64,000 bases of DNA from Candidatus Dojkabacteria bacterium (lineage in GTDB: Bacteria; Patescibacteriota; Dojkabacteria; SC72; JAHDCA01), in the NCBI GenBank assembly GCA_030583845.1, contig CP129478.1, forward strand, positions 66,655-130,654, written 5' to 3'. The position numbers and the translations under genes were made by a program. Below the pieces are notes generated by a model. The model searched no databases and was not told the origin of the DNA. It saw only the letters and a program-made list of their open reading frames with translations. Below, piece by piece: positions 3,334-29,067 of the stretch (its first letter is position 1; every line of letters starts with the position of its first letter).

Positions 3334-3774
3334 ATGTTGATAGGTGAATACCGAAGCAAAATAGGAGATAAGAAAAGAGTCGCCATTCCAAAGAGATTCA
3401 GAGACGAGATGGGGGATGATCTGATACTTACCCGAGGCTACGAAAAAGCTCTTGTATTAGTAAATAAAGAGATGTGGGGGAAAGTAGCAGGCGAGGTAAT
3501 TGGGGGCTCTTTCATAAACAAAAACATCAGAGACAGCAGCAGGTTCCTAGTAGGAAGCGCAGTTGAGTTGGATCTCGATCAGCAAGGACGAGTTGTAATC
3601 CCGACGGCACTCTACGAGCATGCAGCTTTAAGCAAAGAAGTAGTATTCGTTGGACTAGTAAACTGGGTAGAACTATGGGATAAAGAGATGTGGAAAGAGA
3701 GATTAAATTATCTTCAAGCCCACAGCGAGATTATCGCAGATGAATTAAGCAAGATTAAATCAGATGACAAATAG
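3334..3774 (+). CDS. mraZ: transcriptional regulator MraZ
   Basis: 146 aa. Duplicated MraZ/SpoVT-AbrB-like halves. Sits at the head of the dcw cluster directly before rsmH. Confidence 0.85.
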   Translation: MLIGEYRSKIGDKKRVAIPKRFRDEMGDDLILTRGYEKALVLVNKEMWGKVAGEVIGGSFINKNIRDSSRFLVGSAVELDLDQQGRVVIPTALYEHAALSKEVVFVGLVNWVELWDKEMWKERLNYLQAHSEIIADELSKIKSDDK

Positions 3775-4654
3775 CTACCATACACCAGTCCTTCTATACG
3801 AATCTCTGGAACTCTTGAATATTAAGCCTGATGGATTCTATCTGGATGCCACGCTTGGGGAAGCGGGACATAGCAGAGCAATCCTGGAGAGATTGAGTAG
3901 TGGCGGAAAGCTGCTGAGCATCGACCAGGATGAAGAAGCGATCCGATACGTCAGGCATAACTATCAGGAGCAGTTGTTAGGGGGCAACTGGGAGATCGTG
4001 CAAAGCAACTTTGCCAAAGTTCATGAAGTTTTAATGAACTACAATAGGAAACTGGATGGTGTCCTGATGGATCTTGGAATCTCTTCTCGGCAGATTGAAA
4101 TAGAAGGTAAAGGAATCAGTTACCATAATCAATCAGATCCGTTAGACATGAGGATGGATGATCAGCTGCAAGTTACAGCTGCAGACCTCCTAAATGCACT
4201 AACTGAGCAAGAGCTAGAGAAACTCTTCCGAGTATATGGTGAGGAGAGATATGCCAAGAGAATAGCAAGAATTATAAAGGAATCTCCGACGCCCGTTCAA
4301 AGCGTTGGGGAGCTTAATACCATTATAAGTAGAGCAGTACCGGCAACTAAAAACAGCTCTAAACACCCTTCCCGCAGGGTCTTCCAGGCCCTGCGAATAG
4401 CGGTTAACGACGAATTGAACAGTCTAAAAGCCGGATTAGAAGGATCATTTACAAATCTAAATAGCAATGGACGCTTAGTAGTAATCTCATTTCACTCACT
4501 AGAGGATCGGATTGTTAAGGAGTACTTTAATCAGCTCGCAAGAGAGGGCAAAGGAACACTTATCACAAAGAAGCCGATCGTGCCTACAGACACAGAAGTC
4601 ACACAAAACCCTAGATCGCATAGCGCGAAGGTGAGAGCGATAGAGAAGCTTTAA
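3764..4654 (+). CDS. rsmH: 16S rRNA (cytosine1402-N4)-methyltransferase RsmH (MraW)
   Basis: DATLGEAGHS SAM-binding motif. Overlaps the mraZ end by 11 nt. Length 296 aa. Confidence 0.9.
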   Translation: MTNSYHTPVLLYESLELLNIKPDGFYLDATLGEAGHSRAILERLSSGGKLLSIDQDEEAIRYVRHNYQEQLLGGNWEIVQSNFAKVHEVLMNYNRKLDGVLMDLGISSRQIEIEGKGISYHNQSDPLDMRMDDQLQVTAADLLNALTEQELEKLFRVYGEERYAKRIARIIKESPTPVQSVGELNTIISRAVPATKNSSKHPSRRVFQALRIAVNDELNSLKAGLEGSFTNLNSNGRLVVISFHSLEDRIVKEYFNQLAREGKGTLITKKPIVPTDTEVTQNPRSHSAKVRAIEKL

Positions 4655-5319: not shown

Positions 5320-7095
5320 ATGGATAAGACGCCTGAGAAGATCTTTAGGCTGAACACCCGTGTTGTGTTTATATTTATCATTGTTTTTGGGTTTGCAGTC
5401 ATCCTCCAGATGGGCAGATGGCAGATTCTTGATCGTGAGAAATTTGAAGCGATGGCCAGCTCCCAATATTTGAGCACACAGAGACAGCCATCAGGCCGAG
5501 GCACCATCTTCGCAGCGGACGGAAGTATCTTAGCCACGGATAGACCTGCATGGGATGTGTATGCCTCGCTGAGCAGCATTGAAGAAGAAAGAGAGGCATT
5601 CTTTGCCGAAAAGGATAAATATGTGGAGAACGTATCGCAGGTGTTAGGCATTGATTCGAGTGAGCTAGACGAGAAGCTGACCGACGAATTCCGATATATC
5701 TCGATAGAGAAAGGTATAACCCCAGACGAGAAAAAATCATTAGAAGAGGCGCAAATATTTGAGGAAATGTCCCCTGGATTTGGGCTTTACTTTGAGAAGT
5801 CCGAAAAACGTTTCTATCCAAATGGATCGTTAGCTTCGCACGTCTTGGGCTACATGGGGAAGGATGCAAATGGTACCGATATTGGCCTCTACGGAATCGA
5901 AGGCTACTATTTCGGAGACCTGTTAGGCACCGAGGGCTACACATATGAAGAGCAGGATGCAAATGGCAATATTATCCTGACGGCTGAGTACGACCCAGTA
6001 CTACCTCGAGAAGGAAAGGATATCACCTTAACAATCATCCCTGGAATCCAGAAGAAAGTAGAGGACAAACTAAAGAAAGGTGTTGAAAACCACCAGGCAA
6101 AAAGCGGTAGCGCAATAGTGATGGATCCATCAACTGGGGCGATTATAGCAATGGCTAACTACCCAACTTACAATCCGAATGAGTATTGGAGACAGCAAGA
6201 GGCGTGGATCTTTAAAAATAAAGCCATCGCAGATGTTTACGAGCCAGGATCTATATTTAAGCCAATTACCGTAGCTATTGGCTTAGATACCAAAGCCATC
6301 GACGAGAACACTGTCTGCAATGATGAGAAAGGGTATATTACGATGTATGAAGGCACTCCAGATGAGGCGAAGATTTACACCTGGGACAGGAAGCCTGATG
6401 GCAAGATCACCCCCGCACAGTACCTACAGTTTTCAAACAATCCCTGCATTGCCACAACTGCCCTGGCTATCGGTCATGAGAAATATTTTCCCGCAGTTAA
6501 ACGGTTTGGGATAGGTGACTTTGTCGGACTAGGCCTACAGGATGAGACAAATAGCTACATCAGACCATACGAAGAATGGCTCGAGATCGACTTAGCCACC
6601 TCTTCTTTCGGCCAGGGAATCTCTGCAACCCCTATGCAGATGATCTCGGCACTTGCCTCACTTGCCAATGATGGGAAACGTATGCAGCCTCACATAGTAA
6701 AAGAGGTTGGCAATGGAGAAGAGGTTATACAGTTTACCCCTAGGGTAGTATCACAGACTGTGTCTGAAGAGAGCGCAAATAAGGTAGCACGTATGATGAC
6801 ATCGGTCGTTACAGGGGGTGATGCGAAATGGATATTTGATAAGTACTTAAGGGAGTATGACATCGCTGGGAAAACCGGAACAGCTCAGATCCCTAAGAAG
6901 GATACTGTGGGGTATTATGCAGACCGTACAAATACTACCTTTGTAGGATTTGCACCGGTCGACGATCCGAAAATGATCATGCTAATTAGACTTGAAGAGC
7001 CAAGTCTTGGTGAGCACTCGTCCGGTACAGCCGTGCCTGTATGGGTGGATACATTCCTAGCCATCGCTGACGACCTTGAGGTACCTAAGAAGTAG
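5320..7095 (+). CDS. ftsI: peptidoglycan D,D-transpeptidase (FtsI/PBP2-class penicillin-binding protein)
   Basis: N-terminal TM. SxxK (GSIFKP), SxN (FSNN) and KTG (AGKTGTA) motifs. The ATG at 5320 is preceded by GAGGT; the track start at 5263 is also possible. Confidence 0.85.
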   Translation: MDKTPEKIFRLNTRVVFIFIIVFGFAVILQMGRWQILDREKFEAMASSQYLSTQRQPSGRGTIFAADGSILATDRPAWDVYASLSSIEEEREAFFAEKDKYVENVSQVLGIDSSELDEKLTDEFRYISIEKGITPDEKKSLEEAQIFEEMSPGFGLYFEKSEKRFYPNGSLASHVLGYMGKDANGTDIGLYGIEGYYFGDLLGTEGYTYEEQDANGNIILTAEYDPVLPREGKDITLTIIPGIQKKVEDKLKKGVENHQAKSGSAIVMDPSTGAIIAMANYPTYNPNEYWRQQEAWIFKNKAIADVYEPGSIFKPITVAIGLDTKAIDENTVCNDEKGYITMYEGTPDEAKIYTWDRKPDGKITPAQYLQFSNNPCIATTALAIGHEKYFPAVKRFGIGDFVGLGLQDETNSYIRPYEEWLEIDLATSSFGQGISATPMQMISALASLANDGKRMQPHIVKEVGNGEEVIQFTPRVVSQTVSEESANKVARMMTSVVTGGDAKWIFDKYLREYDIAGKTGTAQIPKKDTVGYYADRTNTTFVGFAPVDDPKMIMLIRLEEPSLGEHSSGTAVPVWVDTFLAIADDLEVPKK

Positions 7096-15525: not shown

Positions 15526-16758
15526 ATGAAAAGTGAGATGCACGAGGTTAAGAAGGATAAGGAGATAATTGACCTGATCTTGGACAAAGCAGTCGAAGAG
15601 ATCTTGCCATCACGCGAGGCACTCGAGGCAGCACTGATGTCCGGCAAACGACTGAAAGTATATATTGGTATAGATCCAACTGCTGATACATTGCACATCG
15701 GGCATACAGTCAGCATGCGTAGGCTTGAATATTTTAGACAGCTCGGTCACGAGGCGATACTCCTAATAGGTGACTTCACTGCACGTATTGGCGATCCAGA
15801 CAAGAAAGATACGAGGTCGCAGCTCACAGCCGAACAGGTTGCCGACAATTTAAAGCTTTATACTGAGCAAGCAAAGGCAATAATAAAGATCGACGACGAA
15901 TGGAACCCAGTCAAAGTGCTTTTCAATAACGATTGGCTTGGTCAGATGAAATTTGGAGATGTAGTACAGCTTGCCTCGAATTTCACAGTACAGCAGATGC
16001 TCAAGCGTGATCTATTCCAGAAGAGAATCGCTGAAGATAAGCCGCTATATGTGCACGAGTTTTTCTACCCAATGATGCAAGGGTGGGACTCAGTAGCGAT
16101 GGATATAGATGTTGAGATCGGTGGGAATGACCAACTCTTCAATATGCTAGCAGGCAGGCAGCTTGTGCAAACACATCTGAAGAAAGAGAAGTTTGTGGTC
16201 GCAGGAAAGCTGCTCACAACCGCAGACGGGACGAAGATGGGCAAGAGCGAGGGTAATATGGTAAAGCTTTCTGATAGCGCCGAAGAGATCTATGGCAAGA
16301 TTATGGCACTACCTGATAGCTCAATCGTCCAAGGCTTCGAGCTCTTAACCGACTCAAGCATGGAGCGAGTCAGAGAGACAGAAAACTCATTGGGAGGCAG
16401 TGATGCTAACCCGCTACAGTACAAAAAGATGCTGGCATTGGAAGTAACATCAGCCCTGAAAGGCGATGAAGCGGCGAAGAGGGCTGAGCAATACTTCGTG
16501 AGCGTGTTTCAGGAGAAGAACTACGAGGTAGATATACCGACGGTTAAAGTCGATTCGCAGACAATCAATATCTTAGCGCTAATTGTTGATGGGGCGAAGT
16601 TTGCCGAAAGTAAATCGCAAGCACGTCGACTAGTAGAGCAGGGTGCGGTCTATTTTGCCAACGAGAAAATCAGTGACTGGAACCATGAGGTCACGGTAAA
16701 TGCAGAAGGTGCAGTACTAAAAGTAGGTAGACAGGTGGCGAATATCACCACCGCCTAG
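15526..16758 (+). CDS. tyrS: tyrosine--tRNA ligase
   Basis: HIGH (LHIGHTV) and KMSKS (KMGKS) class-I motifs. C-terminal S4-like domain. Confidence 0.9.
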   Translation: MKSEMHEVKKDKEIIDLILDKAVEEILPSREALEAALMSGKRLKVYIGIDPTADTLHIGHTVSMRRLEYFRQLGHEAILLIGDFTARIGDPDKKDTRSQLTAEQVADNLKLYTEQAKAIIKIDDEWNPVKVLFNNDWLGQMKFGDVVQLASNFTVQQMLKRDLFQKRIAEDKPLYVHEFFYPMMQGWDSVAMDIDVEIGGNDQLFNMLAGRQLVQTHLKKEKFVVAGKLLTTADGTKMGKSEGNMVKLSDSAEEIYGKIMALPDSSIVQGFELLTDSSMERVRETENSLGGSDANPLQYKKMLALEVTSALKGDEAAKRAEQYFVSVFQEKNYEVDIPTVKVDSQTINILALIVDGAKFAESKSQARRLVEQGAVYFANEKISDWNHEVTVNAEGAVLKVGRQVANITTA

Positions 16759-16772
16759 TCACTTTCGATTAA

Positions 16773-17132
16773 TTACTCTGTTTCAAGCATCCCTAAACTT
16801 TCTAGAAGTTGGCGAGCATACTCGATGTAGATCTCAGGCGTAATATACTCATACTCGTCCGTCGTGCAGTCAGGAGGGTTCGCATCCTCTACACAGTATG
16901 GCGATGCTTCAGCTTTGACCGAATCTACCCGAATATAAAACTCATCATTAATTACCATATTGTAGTTATCGTTGAAGTATCCATGCCCAAACGATCCCTC
17001 TCCCAAGATATAATGCTCTACCTCACGGACACTCCCCAATATCTCAATCGGTGGAAACTCTGCAGGGTTTATTGATTCCGGCTCGCCTGGCGTGTATGTA
17101 ATGTTCGACTCAGTCTCTGAGAATAGCACCAC
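16773..17132 (-). CDS. hypothetical protein
   Basis: 119-aa acidic ORF with no recognisable motif. Confidence 0.25.
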   Translation of the reverse strand: MVLFSETESNITYTPGEPESINPAEFPPIEILGSVREVEHYILGEGSFGHGYFNDNYNMVINDEFYIRVDSVKAEASPYCVEDANPPDCTTDEYEYITPEIYIEYARQLLESLGMLETE

Positions 17133-17364
17133 GCTGTATGCACTTGCCTTATCGGTTGTACTATCTTTTATATTTGCAGTGATTTCCAGATACCTATTAG
17201 CGTATCACCATCAAAATCTGTCCTTACTTGGAATACCTCAGGATATCTGAAAGTAATGCCTCCAAAGATAGAAGCGTCTTCATATGTATACCAATCCATC
17301 TCTTTCTCGACTTCGACTACTCTCTCGACAACTTCAGGCTCTGTTTCAGCTTCTTCACTATTGA

Positions 17365-17580
17365 TCATCCTGTCTCTTCTTCTACTGGATCGCCGGATAT
17401 CACAGCAGCTGTTTTATCGCGCAGGGCATCGAACTCATCAGCCATAAAGAGGCCTCCAATAAATGCCGACGCTATAAAAAGCAGCAGAAGTACCCCTCCT
17501 ACCAGAAGCATAACTGTTTTTAATCTAGACTTCTTCTTTGGAGTCTTATACATTTCATCGTTAATCTTTTCCTGAGGCAT
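17365..17580 (-). CDS. hypothetical small membrane protein
   Basis: 71 aa with a single TM (VMLLVGGVLLLLFIASAFIGGLF). Confidence 0.3.
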   Translation of the reverse strand: MPQEKINDEMYKTPKKKSRLKTVMLLVGGVLLLLFIASAFIGGLFMADEFDALRDKTAAVISGDPVEEETG

Positions 17581-17811
17581 ACAGATTGATTTAACAAATT
17601 ATCCGTAGATCGTTTCCGATCACTTATCCATATTACTATACGTGTTAGATGATTAGAAGACAGAGCAACTTCTTGCTTTTAACATCATTTCTGTTTAGAA
17701 TGTCCGCGTGATAACAAAGAATACATCGACAACTCAAAAGCAGATTCTACTTACTTTCAGAACTTAAACCACCTGACGGGGATTGATGCTTGTTGATAAA
17801 ATAGAGAAAGA

Positions 17812-17834
17812 GATCCCCGGAAGGGGATTTTTTA
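17812..17834 (+). terminator. intrinsic-terminator-like hairpin in the relA leader (ATCCCCGGAAGGGGAT plus T6)
   Basis: GC-rich 6-bp stem, a tetraloop and TTTTTT sit 20 nt upstream of the relA ATG. The upstream CGGGGAT (17777-17783) can pair alternatively with the 5' half of the stem. Confidence 0.5.
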
Positions 17835-17853
17835 TTGGACTAAAGGAAATACG

Positions 17854-19380
17854 ATGACTAGTAGCAATATAAGAATAAAAAAGAACCATTTGGATAAAAA
17901 ACTTCTAATCGATGTGATAATGGAGAAGGTTCCGACGCAGTATCACTCGCTACTTATTGAGGCATTGCAATTTGCAGAGGAGGTTCACAAAGACCAGATT
18001 CGTAAATCAGGGGAGCCGTTCCTGTTCCACCCGCTAAATGTGGCCGCAATTGTGGCGGAGATAAATCTTGATACAGACTCAATTATCGCTGCATTGTTGC
18101 ACAACTGCTTTAAAGAAAAGAGCGCGCAAGAGATTCGCGAGTTATCTAGAGAAATCGAGGAAAAGTTTGGCGAAGAGGTGCTGAAAATGGTAAAGAATAT
18201 AGATCGTTTTTCTGCAGGGACACGCAGTGAAACAGATGCTGCCGTTATCACGAAATACATAATGGCCTGCACTGATGACATAAGGCTTGTCTTAATAAAA
18301 CTGGCTGACAGACTCCACAATAGCAGAACCATTGATGCTTTAACTGCAGAACAGCAGCAGAAAGCTGCTAAGAATATTATCAACATTTACAGTCCGCTCT
18401 GTACATACCTCAACCTATACGACTTTAAGAAGGAGTTGGAAGAAACTGCATTTAAAATCATGGATCCAAAGAAATTTGAGCTAATCGACAAGAGACTTAC
18501 AAAGCTGAAGATCAATGATCATGCCGAGATTTTGAAGATCAAGAAGCGCCTCGCCGATCTGCTCAGCCCATACGGAATGCATCCAATCATCTATGGACGT
18601 ATTAAAGGCCACTACAGTATCCACACCAAGCTGAAAGATAAGGGTGTAAGCAAGAATTTCCGCTTGGAAGATATCAAGGATTTGATGGCCTTCACGATCC
18701 TCGTAGATAAGGTGGAGGAGTGCTACAAAGTTGCAGAAATAGTAGTCAAAAATAGCGACATAGATATGTCGGAATACGATGACTATATCCGTCATCCGAA
18801 AAAGAACGGATATCGTGCGATTCATATTCAGACAAGCTTCGCTGATATGGGGGTAAGAGCTTTCGAGGTGCAGATAAAGACCGAGGAGATGCATCAGTAC
18901 AATATGTACGGTCCTGCTTCTCACATCGTTTATAAGATCGAGAGGGAGCTTGGCAAAGGCAACCCACGTGAGTATTACTGGGTGAAAGAATTGCATAAGA
19001 GCCTGTACGAGTACCAACAAATTAAGAAGTCACGCTCTATTCCTATCCGTTCAGATATCTTCAAAAACAAAGTATTCGTATTTACACCACAGAACCGGCT
19101 AATTGAACTGCCAGTAGGTTCTACTGTTGTTGATTTCGCTTATGAAATCCACAGCGATCTCGGCAACAAAATGACTGGTTGCAGGCTGAACGGACGAAAG
19201 AGCAAGGTCTGGACAATGCTTGCGACTGGAGATCTGGTCGAAGTTATTACAGACGAGAGCCAGGAGCTACCCGATAGGGAATGGCTCAAGTTTGTGCGCA
19301 CTAGGAAAGCGCGCGAGGCAATTGAGAGCGCAATCAGCAGGAATTCTGAGGGGGTGAAGTTTACCCACACGATACAGTAG
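17854..19380 (+). CDS. relA: (p)ppGpp synthetase RelA/SpoT-family with a TGS domain and no ACT domain
   Basis: Synthetase motifs GRIKGHYSIHTKL and GYRAIHIQT. TGS domain (VFVFTPQNRLIELPVGSTVVDFAY). The HD-domain signature reads HN (AALLHNCF), so the hydrolase half is probably inactive. Confidence 0.85.
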   Translation: MTSSNIRIKKNHLDKKLLIDVIMEKVPTQYHSLLIEALQFAEEVHKDQIRKSGEPFLFHPLNVAAIVAEINLDTDSIIAALLHNCFKEKSAQEIRELSREIEEKFGEEVLKMVKNIDRFSAGTRSETDAAVITKYIMACTDDIRLVLIKLADRLHNSRTIDALTAEQQQKAAKNIINIYSPLCTYLNLYDFKKELEETAFKIMDPKKFELIDKRLTKLKINDHAEILKIKKRLADLLSPYGMHPIIYGRIKGHYSIHTKLKDKGVSKNFRLEDIKDLMAFTILVDKVEECYKVAEIVVKNSDIDMSEYDDYIRHPKKNGYRAIHIQTSFADMGVRAFEVQIKTEEMHQYNMYGPASHIVYKIERELGKGNPREYYWVKELHKSLYEYQQIKKSRSIPIRSDIFKNKVFVFTPQNRLIELPVGSTVVDFAYEIHSDLGNKMTGCRLNGRKSKVWTMLATGDLVEVITDESQELPDREWLKFVRTRKAREAIESAISRNSEGVKFTHTIQ

Positions 19381-19426: not shown

Positions 19427-19543
19427 ATGACGAAGAAATCAAGAGAGAAAATAAACAAAACAATAACAATCATTCTCGGAATTGCCTTCCTGGCCTCAAT
19501 AGTATTCCCAGTGGTTGCTGCTGTTACAGACATCCTGAACTAA
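19427..19543 (+). CDS. possible 38-aa hydrophobic peptide
   Basis: ATG...TAA ORF (MTKKSREKINKTITIILGIAFLASIVFPVVAAVTDILN) in the relA-recG spacer, below the ORF-track length cutoff. Confidence 0.2.
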   Translation: MTKKSREKINKTITIILGIAFLASIVFPVVAAVTDILN

Positions 19544-19634
19544 TACCCACAAGTAGCTAGCGATTTAGCCTCAAAGAGTCGATTAGTAACATGGCCGAGT
19601 GGTCGGGCTAATCCTAATGTTGTAAAATTCCTGT

Positions 19635-28667: not shown

Positions 28668-29006
28668 ATGAGAACTAAGACAGGTATTGCAAGACGCAGA
28701 CGACACAATAAAGTATTGAAGGCAACCAAGGGTTATAGAATGACCAAGGGTCGTCTGTACCGCGTTTCACATGAGGCTTACCTCCACGCTGGTAACTACT
28801 CATTCGCACATAGAAAGCGAAGACCAACTCAGATTCGAAGAGTATGGATTGACAGAATCAATGCAGCCGCTCGCCTAAACGACACAACATATAGCGAGCT
28901 TATGGATAAGATGCACAAGGCGGATGTCAGACTAAACAAGAAAGTGCTTGCTGATATTGCATATAACAACCCTGAATCATTTAGTAGCCTAGTTAAGTCC
29001 TTGTAG
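28668..29006 (+). CDS. rplT: 50S ribosomal protein L20
   Basis: Canonical L20 sequence (ARRRRHNKVLKATKGY...WIDRINAAARLN). Confidence 0.9.
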   Translation: MRTKTGIARRRRHNKVLKATKGYRMTKGRLYRVSHEAYLHAGNYSFAHRKRRPTQIRRVWIDRINAAARLNDTTYSELMDKMHKADVRLNKKVLADIAYNNPESFSSLVKSL

Positions 29007-29030: not shown

Positions 29031-29067
29031 AGGGACCTTTTACAAAATAAAAGGTCCCTTTTTATTT
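29031..29067 (+). terminator. rho-independent terminator after rplT
   Basis: 11-bp stem AGGGACCTTTT/AAAAGGTCCCT with a 7-nt loop, followed by TTTTATTT. Confidence 0.75.

Follow-up and report, generated by a model that had tools for sequence, protein, structure and literature searches.

A conserved terminator/antiterminator element before rel in Dojkabacteria: a candidate ribosome-mediated transcription attenuator

What does a hairpin shaped like an intrinsic terminator do 20 nt before the start codon of a stringent-response gene? The question arises in a 64,000-nt stretch of Candidatus Dojkabacteria contig CP129478.1 (the window, meaning the whole stretch analyzed), where rel, encoding a short RelA/SpoT homologue (RSH), begins at position 17854 of the forward strand and is followed by recG. 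The original prediction, made from the sequence alone, described a terminator-like ATCCCC-GGAA-GGGGAT followed by T6 and an upstream CGGGGAT able to pair with the 5' half of its stem. Sequence comparison indicates that this element is quite likely a conserved terminator/antiterminator transcription attenuator before rel. The best overall explanation, held with modest confidence, is a ribosome-mediated attenuator that would gate read-through into rel, and probably into recG as well. The parts of the element are listed by position and strand.

17766–17774, + strand: segment 1 (AAACCACCT), the outer strand of the putative antiterminator, pairing with 17822–17826 in the minimum free energy (MFE) structures.
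17777–17784, + strand: segment 2, or X (CGGGGATT), the antiterminator strand, forming 8 bp with 17812–17819.
17812–17819, + strand: segment 3, or X' (GATCCCCG), common to the antiterminator and the 5' arm of the terminator.
17813–17828, + strand: predicted terminator hairpin ATCCCC-GGAA-GGGGAT with a GNRA loop, −10 kcal/mol, or −11.6 kcal/mol with the flanking A/U pairs.
17828–17836, + strand: U-tract (TTTTTTATT), T6 at 17828–17833 and then ATT.

Reading the sequence confirms the terminator shape and its position. The parts are GATCCCC (17812–17818), the loop GGAA (17819–17822), and GGGGAT (17823–17828); the rel ATG lies 20 nt 3' of the hairpin, and an A-rich run just 5' of it (17808–17812) is able to pair with the T-run. 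The competing pairing proves to be 8 bp long, with 17777–17784 reading CGGGGAT(T) and its complement lying at 17812–17819. The MFE structure of 17760–17845 is a long alternative hairpin with an inner helix (17777–17784 with 17812–17819) and an outer helix (17769–17774 with 17822–17826). Its energy is −24.6 kcal/mol (z = −4.1), and none of 200 shuffled sequences was as stable. A duplex search of the terminator 5' arm against the 66 nt upstream gave p = 0.0035 for the arm alone and p = 0.0003 for the arm plus 2 nt in dinucleotide shuffles, and a repeat search recovered identical inverted repeats. Segment 1 can alternatively form a weak hairpin with segment 2. The leader thus has two mutually exclusive folds. 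The long hairpin (2:3 inner, 1:4 outer) would be the antiterminator, and the other fold combines the weak 1:2 hairpin with the terminator 3:4.

A strict scan of the whole 64-kb window for a GC-containing hairpin plus a T-run found only two canonical intrinsic terminators. One is the rel-leader hairpin, and the other lies directly 3' of rplT, which encodes L20.

28669–29006: rplT (L20), directly 5' of the terminator below.
29031–29059, + strand: canonical terminator AGGGACCTTTTA-caaaa-TAAAAGGTCCCT followed by TTTTATTT.

Because canonical terminators are so rare here, one placed 20 nt before a start codon is conspicuous. A repeated extragenic palindrome of the REP type was rejected, since the 64 kb hold no second copy. 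The scan also flagged a minus-strand terminator, which was rejected because that strand has no gene ending at the site and its tail there is unconserved in relatives.

The value of the competing pairing depends on its conservation. Scans of genome and metagenome contigs with the Rel protein and profile returned only Rel proteins at most 37% identical and no close relatives; these distant loci served as the background set. Lineages with a short Rel and available DNA came from a protein database plus a HMMER scan of cluster representatives. A second, profile-based homologue search added only P0137, in which rel overlaps the upstream gene and has no leader. Directly 5' of rel in six lineages, whose Rel proteins are 39–55% identical, stands the same layout: X, a spacer of 15–27 nt, X', a short loop, X again, and a T-rich tail. 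The synteny tyrS ... rel–recG is found throughout the relatives. The lineages are listed by locus label with Rel identity where determined, X, hairpin, and tail.

Window: X CGGGGATT; hairpin GATCCCC-GGAA-GGGGAT; tail TTTTTATT.
L081 (Rel 55%): X TGGGGATT (also given as GGGGATTGA); hairpin GATCCCC-GAGA-GGGGAT, T6; tail TTTTTATT.
L083/L170 group (Rel 50%): X GGGGGATC; hairpin ACCCCCA-GAAA-TGGGGGT; tail CTTTATTT.
L184: X CGGGGGTGATG (also given as GGGGGTGATG); hairpin ACCCCCTA-GAAA-TAGGGGGT, an analogous 8-bp stem; tail TTTTGATTATT.
L085/L181 (Rel 39%): X GGGGGA; hairpin AAATCCC-CCTAATAA-GGGATTT; tail CTTTTTCT.
L082 (Rel 47%): X CTTTCGAAGTAG (also given as TTCGAAGTAG); hairpin CTACTTC-GAAA-GAAGTAG; tail ATTTTATT.

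The pairing is kept in all six lineages with its three elements co-varying, which supports the proposed regulatory leader, in which terminator and antiterminator pairings exclude each other. In L170 and L184, G4 has become G5 in X, X', and the 3' arm alike. In L082, none of the three elements is related in sequence to those of the other lineages, and the architecture is nonetheless kept. All 35 terminator base pairs tabulated across five lineages are canonical, with two to four pair types per column. The hairpin loop is a GNRA tetraloop in five of six lineages, and a T-rich tail follows the stem directly in all six. Shuffle p values for the alternative pairing are 0.0003 in the window, 0.003 in L081, 0.0007 in L082, 0.036 in L085, and 0.007 in L184. 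The X:X' helix is part of the MFE structure when the RNA is folded only to X', in each of five tested lineages and also in L184; the antiterminator is therefore expected to form first. A terminator-like hairpin lies within 120 nt of the rel start in all the Dojkabacteria-type lineages compared (L081, L082, the L083/L170 group, and the L085 group), and in only 5 of about 160 distant rel loci. Four of those five have no alternative pairing (p = 0.2–0.78).

Stems of 6–8 bp are short and the tests involved many post hoc choices, so coincidence must be considered, with both the hairpin and the complementarity arising by chance in an AT-rich spacer. It appears most improbable, given p values of 0.0003–0.007 in four lineages, co-variation across Rel proteins this divergent, the prevalence of GNRA loops, and the scarcity of such hairpins before distant rel genes.

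The fifth distant locus, L078 from a saccharibacterium, has a significant alternative pairing (p = 0.001). Across 2861–2975, the stop codon of a 749-aa gene (2861–2863) is followed by a 13-bp palindrome (2867–2892) that overlaps TTGGCGG (2889–2895). In the terminator CCGCC-AAATA-GGCGG plus TTGTTTTT (2952–2966), the 5' arm is complementary to this TTGGCGG. This look-alike hints that the principle extends across the Candidate Phyla Radiation (CPR).

Where does the leader begin? The original prediction took the 273 nt of 17581–17853 as an untranslated leader. A leader is supported, but this interval is a divergent intergenic region adjoining an open reading frame (ORF) on the minus strand (17365–17580), and a conserved promoter within it implies a shorter transcript.

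17673–17678, + strand: −35 element TTGCTT of promoter P1, aligned with TTGCAT in L081 and TTGATT in L083/L170, each 17 nt from the −10 element.
17696–17701, + strand: −10 element TAGAAT of P1, aligned with TACAAT in L081 (3843–3848) and TAGAAT in L170 (2837–2842).

Alignment of the window, L081, and L083/L084 shows a sigma-70-type promoter, TTGnnT-17-TAnAAT, kept in three lineages. A simple promoter scan missed it because the −35 element is weak. L184 has TATAAT at 1611–1616, overlapping the tyrS stop codon. The conserved promoter position places the predicted start near 17708, giving a leader of about 146 nt with the hairpin about 105 nt past the start. Across lineages, only 8–32 nt separate the terminator from rel. 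This gap has no room for a promoter, so rel expression would depend on read-through.

A second promoter candidate in the window, P2 (CTGACG-18-TAAAAT, 17773–17802), was rejected as the main promoter because it is unconserved and would still transcribe the whole terminator. P2 bears on the view that the hairpin acts after transcription, either as a 5' stabilizing stem-loop of a P2-started rel mRNA or as a translational switch over the ribosome-binding region. The scan extends P2 to CTGACG-18-TGaTAAAAT with a start at about 17809, just before the hairpin, and in L082 and L085 the 3' arm is purine-rich (GAAGTAG, AGGGAT) and lies 9–18 nt before the ATG, a Shine-Dalgarno position. We consider this view very unlikely: the P2 hexamers are not kept in L081, L170, or L082, a transcript from 17809 still carries the full hairpin and U-tract, the Shine-Dalgarno-like AAGGAA of the window (17843–17848) is outside the hairpin, and the T-rich tails after every stem favor termination over translation control. 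By eye, L082 shows a promoter-like TTGCAA-16-TAGATT at 3968–4000; it overlaps the hairpin, and its 3' end is 5 nt from the rel ATG.

What could read the state of such a leader? In the window, the predicted transcript starts with a short upstream open reading frame (uORF) that ends just before X. Similar uORFs follow the promoters of three relatives.

17708–17767, + strand: window uORF, GTG start, 19 codons (VITKNTSTTQKQILLTFRT), stop TAA at 17765–17767 and a second in-frame TGA at 17774–17776.
L081: uORF MKLPRQTKSKTELTFLAIYI, ATG 7 nt after the −10 element.
L170: uORF MNRPIRKHNFNLLLIVITPDI, ATG 10 nt after the −10 element.
L184: uORF MKNISMHIVTFKRLPINRG, ATG 9 nt after the −10 element.

All four lineages with their own promoter have a uORF of 19–21 codons that starts 6–10 nt after the −10 element. 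An ORF starting 4–12 nt after the −10 element and ending within 16 nt of X, a definition chosen post hoc, occurred in 1.6% of dinucleotide shuffles for the window, 4.3% for L081, 2.6% for L170, and 6.2% for L184. Fisher combination of the four p values (0.016, 0.043, 0.026, and 0.062) gives about 6e-4, to be read with the same post hoc choice in mind. L085 and L082 have no separate promoter or uORF; instead, a full-length upstream gene ends at X. The tyrS stop lies 3 nt before X in L085, and the stop codon of an M20 peptidase gene lies inside X in L082. Thus, the stop of an upstream ORF is 0–10 nt before X or within X in all six lineages. Another possible leader ORF, in the frame ending GAT-TGA (17781–17786), was rejected; it has a TTG start in L081 and no start codon in the window.

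The uORF would have to be translated from the very 5' end of its transcript. Among the 52 large ORFs of the window, 20 have TAnnnT, often TATAAT, ending 5–9 nt before the start codon, and only 3, rel included, have a Shine-Dalgarno-like motif. These counts suggest that leaderless mRNAs are the norm in this genome, and the uORF start has the layout of its usual leaderless gene starts. A literature search found no paper joining 'leaderless' with Patescibacteria. The uORFs have no shared codon bias: threonine makes up 6 of 19 codons in the window, 3 of 20 in L081, 1 of 21 in L170, and 1 of 19 in L184. The lack of a shared amino-acid bias points to the general pace of translation, rather than one amino acid, as the signal. 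Three uORFs of the four encode a Thr-Phe dipeptide by codons that differ at third positions (ACT TTC, ACT TTT, and ACA TTC), at 17750–17758 in the window, about 1650–1658 in L184, and about 3892–3900 in L081; in L170 the dipeptide is Asn-Phe (AAC TTT). The recurrence may be due to chance or to a conserved motif in the peptide or the RNA, and as a post hoc observation it carries little weight.

These features suggest the following sequence of events. The free nascent leader would fold as the antiterminator, and RNA polymerase would read into rel. A ribosome at the uORF stop would cover segment 1 and the edge of segment 2, or all of segment 2 in the relatives, so that the antiterminator is lost and the terminator can form. 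Where no uORF is present, in L085 and L082, tyrS or the M20 peptidase gene would take its place, and the attenuator would in effect read whether a ribosome had reached the end of any upstream ORF, be it a 19-codon mini-ORF, tyrS, or a peptidase gene. With ribosomes close behind RNA polymerase, little rel would be transcribed; slow translation or a shortage of ribosomes would raise transcription. The rise would then come when a (p)ppGpp synthetase is needed.

The ribosome was modelled by masking 9–12 nt after the upstream stop codon. In the folding energies, masking shifts the preference to the terminator in every lineage. The free window leader favors the antiterminator at −24.6 kcal/mol compared to −19.8 for the terminator; after masking, the antiterminator falls to −15.7 (9 nt) or −6.2 (12 nt) and the terminator stands at −16.6 or −15.8. 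The corresponding L081 values are −18.9 and −18.2 for the free leader, and −11.9 or −4.4 compared to −13.0 or −12.1 for the masked one. Masking abolishes the antiterminator in L170, L082, L085, and L184. The full-length terminator and antiterminator conformers differ by 0.6–4 kcal/mol. Overall, confidence that the translating ribosome is the sensor of the rel attenuator is evenly balanced.

Several observations weigh against this reading. Every functional step of the mechanism is itself inferred. In the window, only the outer 1:4 stem would be lost to a terminating ribosome, and masking 9 nt then gives a small shift (−15.7 compared to −16.6). The distance from uORF stop to X core differs, at 10 nt in the window and L081 and 0 nt in L170 and L184. 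The uORF peptides are unconserved, and that of the window starts with GTG. Statistical support for the alternative pairing is weak in two cases, L170 (p = 0.07) and the L181 variant (p = 0.13), the latter having lost one X:X' pair without compensation; within lineages (L170–L180, L181), variation is too slight for informative substitutions and consists of one G/A change at the stem base and this single loss. The lineages are few, and three of the six have a common sequence ancestry. Two further short-Rel loci, L183 and L168, have no such leader, and the L182 locus is truncated. The promoter-like sequence of L082 may be a separate leaderless rel promoter that bypasses the terminator. The geometry of L078 fits the opposite logic, with X set free by a ribosome at the stop codon.

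A different sensor would explain why the terminator/antiterminator architecture is kept and the uORF peptide and stop position are not. A small ligand (for example a nucleotide or (p)ppGpp), uncharged tRNA, an RNA-binding protein, or polymerase kinetics that depend on NTPs could stabilize one fold; the protein might be Rel itself, acting with its TGS domain, and in each of these cases the uORF would be incidental. A CACCTGA/CCACC motif is conserved beside X, and its frame differs between lineages or it lies outside the uORF. The ancestral upstream neighbor is tyrS, and L170 has a weak T-box-like match before a long tyrS (B3_4 fusion) at 452–637 of the + strand (34.9 bits, E = 2.6e-4, gathering score 93), so tRNA-sensing leaders may exist in the clade. 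The window tyrS (15526–16758) has only 68 nt upstream of it, with no T-box-like match.

The layout leaves little place for an aptamer. It would sit in coding sequence in L085 and L082, where the tyrS stop is 3 nt from X and the peptidase stop is inside X; the X–X' loop is only 15–27 nt long and unconserved; and the 70 nt from the start site to X show no significant folding (the whole region has z = −1.3). The original prediction had recognized no riboswitch or T-box family, and database searches agree. Rfam at gathering thresholds has zero matches in the whole window, including the ykkC/ppGpp, PRPP, and Thr/Trp/His/Leu leader families, and at permissive E-values nothing in the rel leaders of four relatives. 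The best sub-threshold match, STnc130 (25.7 bits compared to a threshold of 55, E = 0.17), is driven by the terminator. The T-box model RF00230 has no match at E ≤ 10 in 17300–18100, and for the rel leaders of L081, L170, L082, and L085, cmscan reported no T-box at E ≤ 0.1. ARAGORN found no tRNA or tmRNA. Together with an ORF end at X in all six lineages, these results make a non-ribosome sensor quite unlikely. A translating ribosome on the putative leaderless 19-codon uORF is a likelier sensor than a ligand-binding aptamer.

Is there a switch at all? Positions 17768–17783 (ACCACCTGACGGGGAT) repeat the terminator palindrome ATCCCCGGAAGGGGAT directly in degenerate form, offset by 45 nt, and the segment 1 region is a degenerate copy of the terminator 5' arm. 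The copy suggests a possible origin of the alternative pairing, since duplication of a palindrome automatically yields one. The hairpin could then be the plain terminator of what lies upstream (tyrS or the M20 peptidase operon in some lineages, a small-protein or small RNA gene transcribed from P1 in others), with X a relic of a tandem palindrome duplication and rel relying on constitutive leak-through. In L082 and L085, a gene in the same orientation stands immediately before the hairpin, and P1, uORF, and terminator together form a self-contained mini-gene of about 125 nt. The original prediction had offered a small RNA ending at the terminator as an alternative, and a product of about this size may exist. 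Against the relic view, X is kept where the hairpin has changed wholly (L082) or partly (L170 and L184), and a neutral relic would not track such changes. A rel promoter has no space past the terminator, a terminator type found twice in 64 kb is unlikely to stand incidentally before an important gene, and the uORF peptide is unconserved, unlike a functional small protein. A plain terminator with leak-through is therefore unlikely.

The ribosome-mediated attenuator is of a known kind. In amino-acid operons (trp, his, leu, thr, pheA, and ilv; PMC2965389, PMC3082878), leader-peptide attenuators, like the model proposed for rel, have a short leader ORF and form either a 2:3 antiterminator or a 3:4 terminator before the regulated gene, and their leader stop lies at or just before segment 2, where a ribosome favors the terminator. 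The rel leader differs from them in having no conserved run of cognate codons, a (p)ppGpp synthetase rather than a biosynthetic operon as target, a leaderless uORF without a Shine-Dalgarno sequence, a full-length gene in place of the uORF in two lineages, a long antiterminator hairpin with an extra 1:4 outer stem, and a CPR host. T-box leaders also use terminator/antiterminator control and sense a physiologically related signal (uncharged tRNA), and the rel element is found in a tyrS neighborhood; the rel leader has no Stem I or specifier and no T-box sequence, and is only about 146 nt long.

In Escherichia coli pyrBI, the leader ORF extends across the terminator, which fails to act when a ribosome follows the polymerase closely. 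Like the proposed rel attenuator, the pyrBI leader senses the distance of the ribosome behind RNA polymerase beside an intrinsic terminator, but the rel uORF ends before the terminator and its predicted logic is opposite. Further uORF attenuators, the bmrCD, lmo0919, and erm-type leaders, control resistance genes. The Bacillus subtilis vmlR leader is a translation-stress-responsive uORF attenuator of a resistance gene (PMC9226507). In vmlR-type leaders, as proposed for rel, a short uORF has no amino-acid specificity, the position or stalling of the ribosome picks the fold, and the state of translation is the signal. Their trigger is a ribosome stalled by an antibiotic and their targets are genes for ABCF, efflux, or methylase proteins, whereas the target here is rel. 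The rel leader has no recognizable stalling motif and no sequence similarity to them, and the analogy is functional only. By this analogy, with no codon bias, it would be closer in its working to the vmlR type than to the trp/his/thr type. As a family member it fits neither, since it lacks a run of regulatory codons and its target gene is another. Among the searchable full texts on attenuation or antitermination with relA or the stringent response, and on the CPR stringent response, none described such a rel leader.

The gene behind the leader had been named relA. It belongs to the (p)ppGpp synthetase family, but as a short Rel/RSH rather than a strict RelA.

17854–19380, + strand: rel, short RelA/SpoT homologue of 508 aa with HD_4, RelA_SpoT, and TGS domains (Pfam, NCBIfam).
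17843–17848, + strand: Shine-Dalgarno-like AAGGAA of rel.
16773–17580, − strand: divergent neighbor, one gene split into three ORFs by two frameshifts, bounding the regulatory region.

The product has no C-terminal ACT region and is 100% identical to a protein from a Candidatus Dojkabacteria metagenome-assembled genome. Its hydrolase motif reads LLHNCFKE around H83-N84 (18100–18105) compared to LHDVVED in solved Rel proteins, and H-N in place of HD is invariant in five Dojkabacteria-type Rel relatives. The (p)ppGpp hydrolase site may thus be degenerate and the enzyme a synthetase only. Public annotation gives a Rel of 496 aa from a TTG at 17890, 12 codons downstream of the ATG at 17854. The ATG is the more likely start because of the Shine-Dalgarno-like motif and the full-length alignment of a 506-aa relative (P0002). 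The motif, rare among the genes of the window, fits an internal rather than a 5'-terminal cistron.

The fragments of the divergent neighbor (119, 66, and 71 aa in frames −3, −1, and −2) match an intact 264-aa gene of L081 in tblastn (E = 1e-55). That homologue is a membrane-anchored protein, and the ORF at 17365–17580 is the N-terminal fragment. The frameshifts reflect either a pseudogene or homopolymer errors in the assembly. Between rel and recG lies a small ORF (19428–19544, + strand) of 38 aa with one hydrophobic helix (MTKKSREKINKTITIILGIAFLASIVFPVVAAVTDILN). Small genes occupy the same place in L081 (38 aa, 5564–5680) and L181 (36 aa, 3481–3591).

Gene regulation in the CPR is almost unexplored, its members being uncultured, with tiny genomes and few transcription factors. 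If true, this computationally predicted cis-acting RNA switch before rel would be among the first concrete regulatory mechanisms proposed for the CPR. Stringent-response control would gain a transcriptional layer, in which the status of translation switches the synthetase gene. If the hydrolase site is degenerate, with HN for HD, tight control of synthetase expression would be physiologically sensible. The leader, at about 130 nt, offers a compact test case for attenuation that depends on a leaderless uORF. We tentatively suggest that, in a CPR clade with mostly leaderless mRNAs, a generic sensor of translation pace may set rel expression, the switch having been kept as the ORF upstream of it was exchanged.

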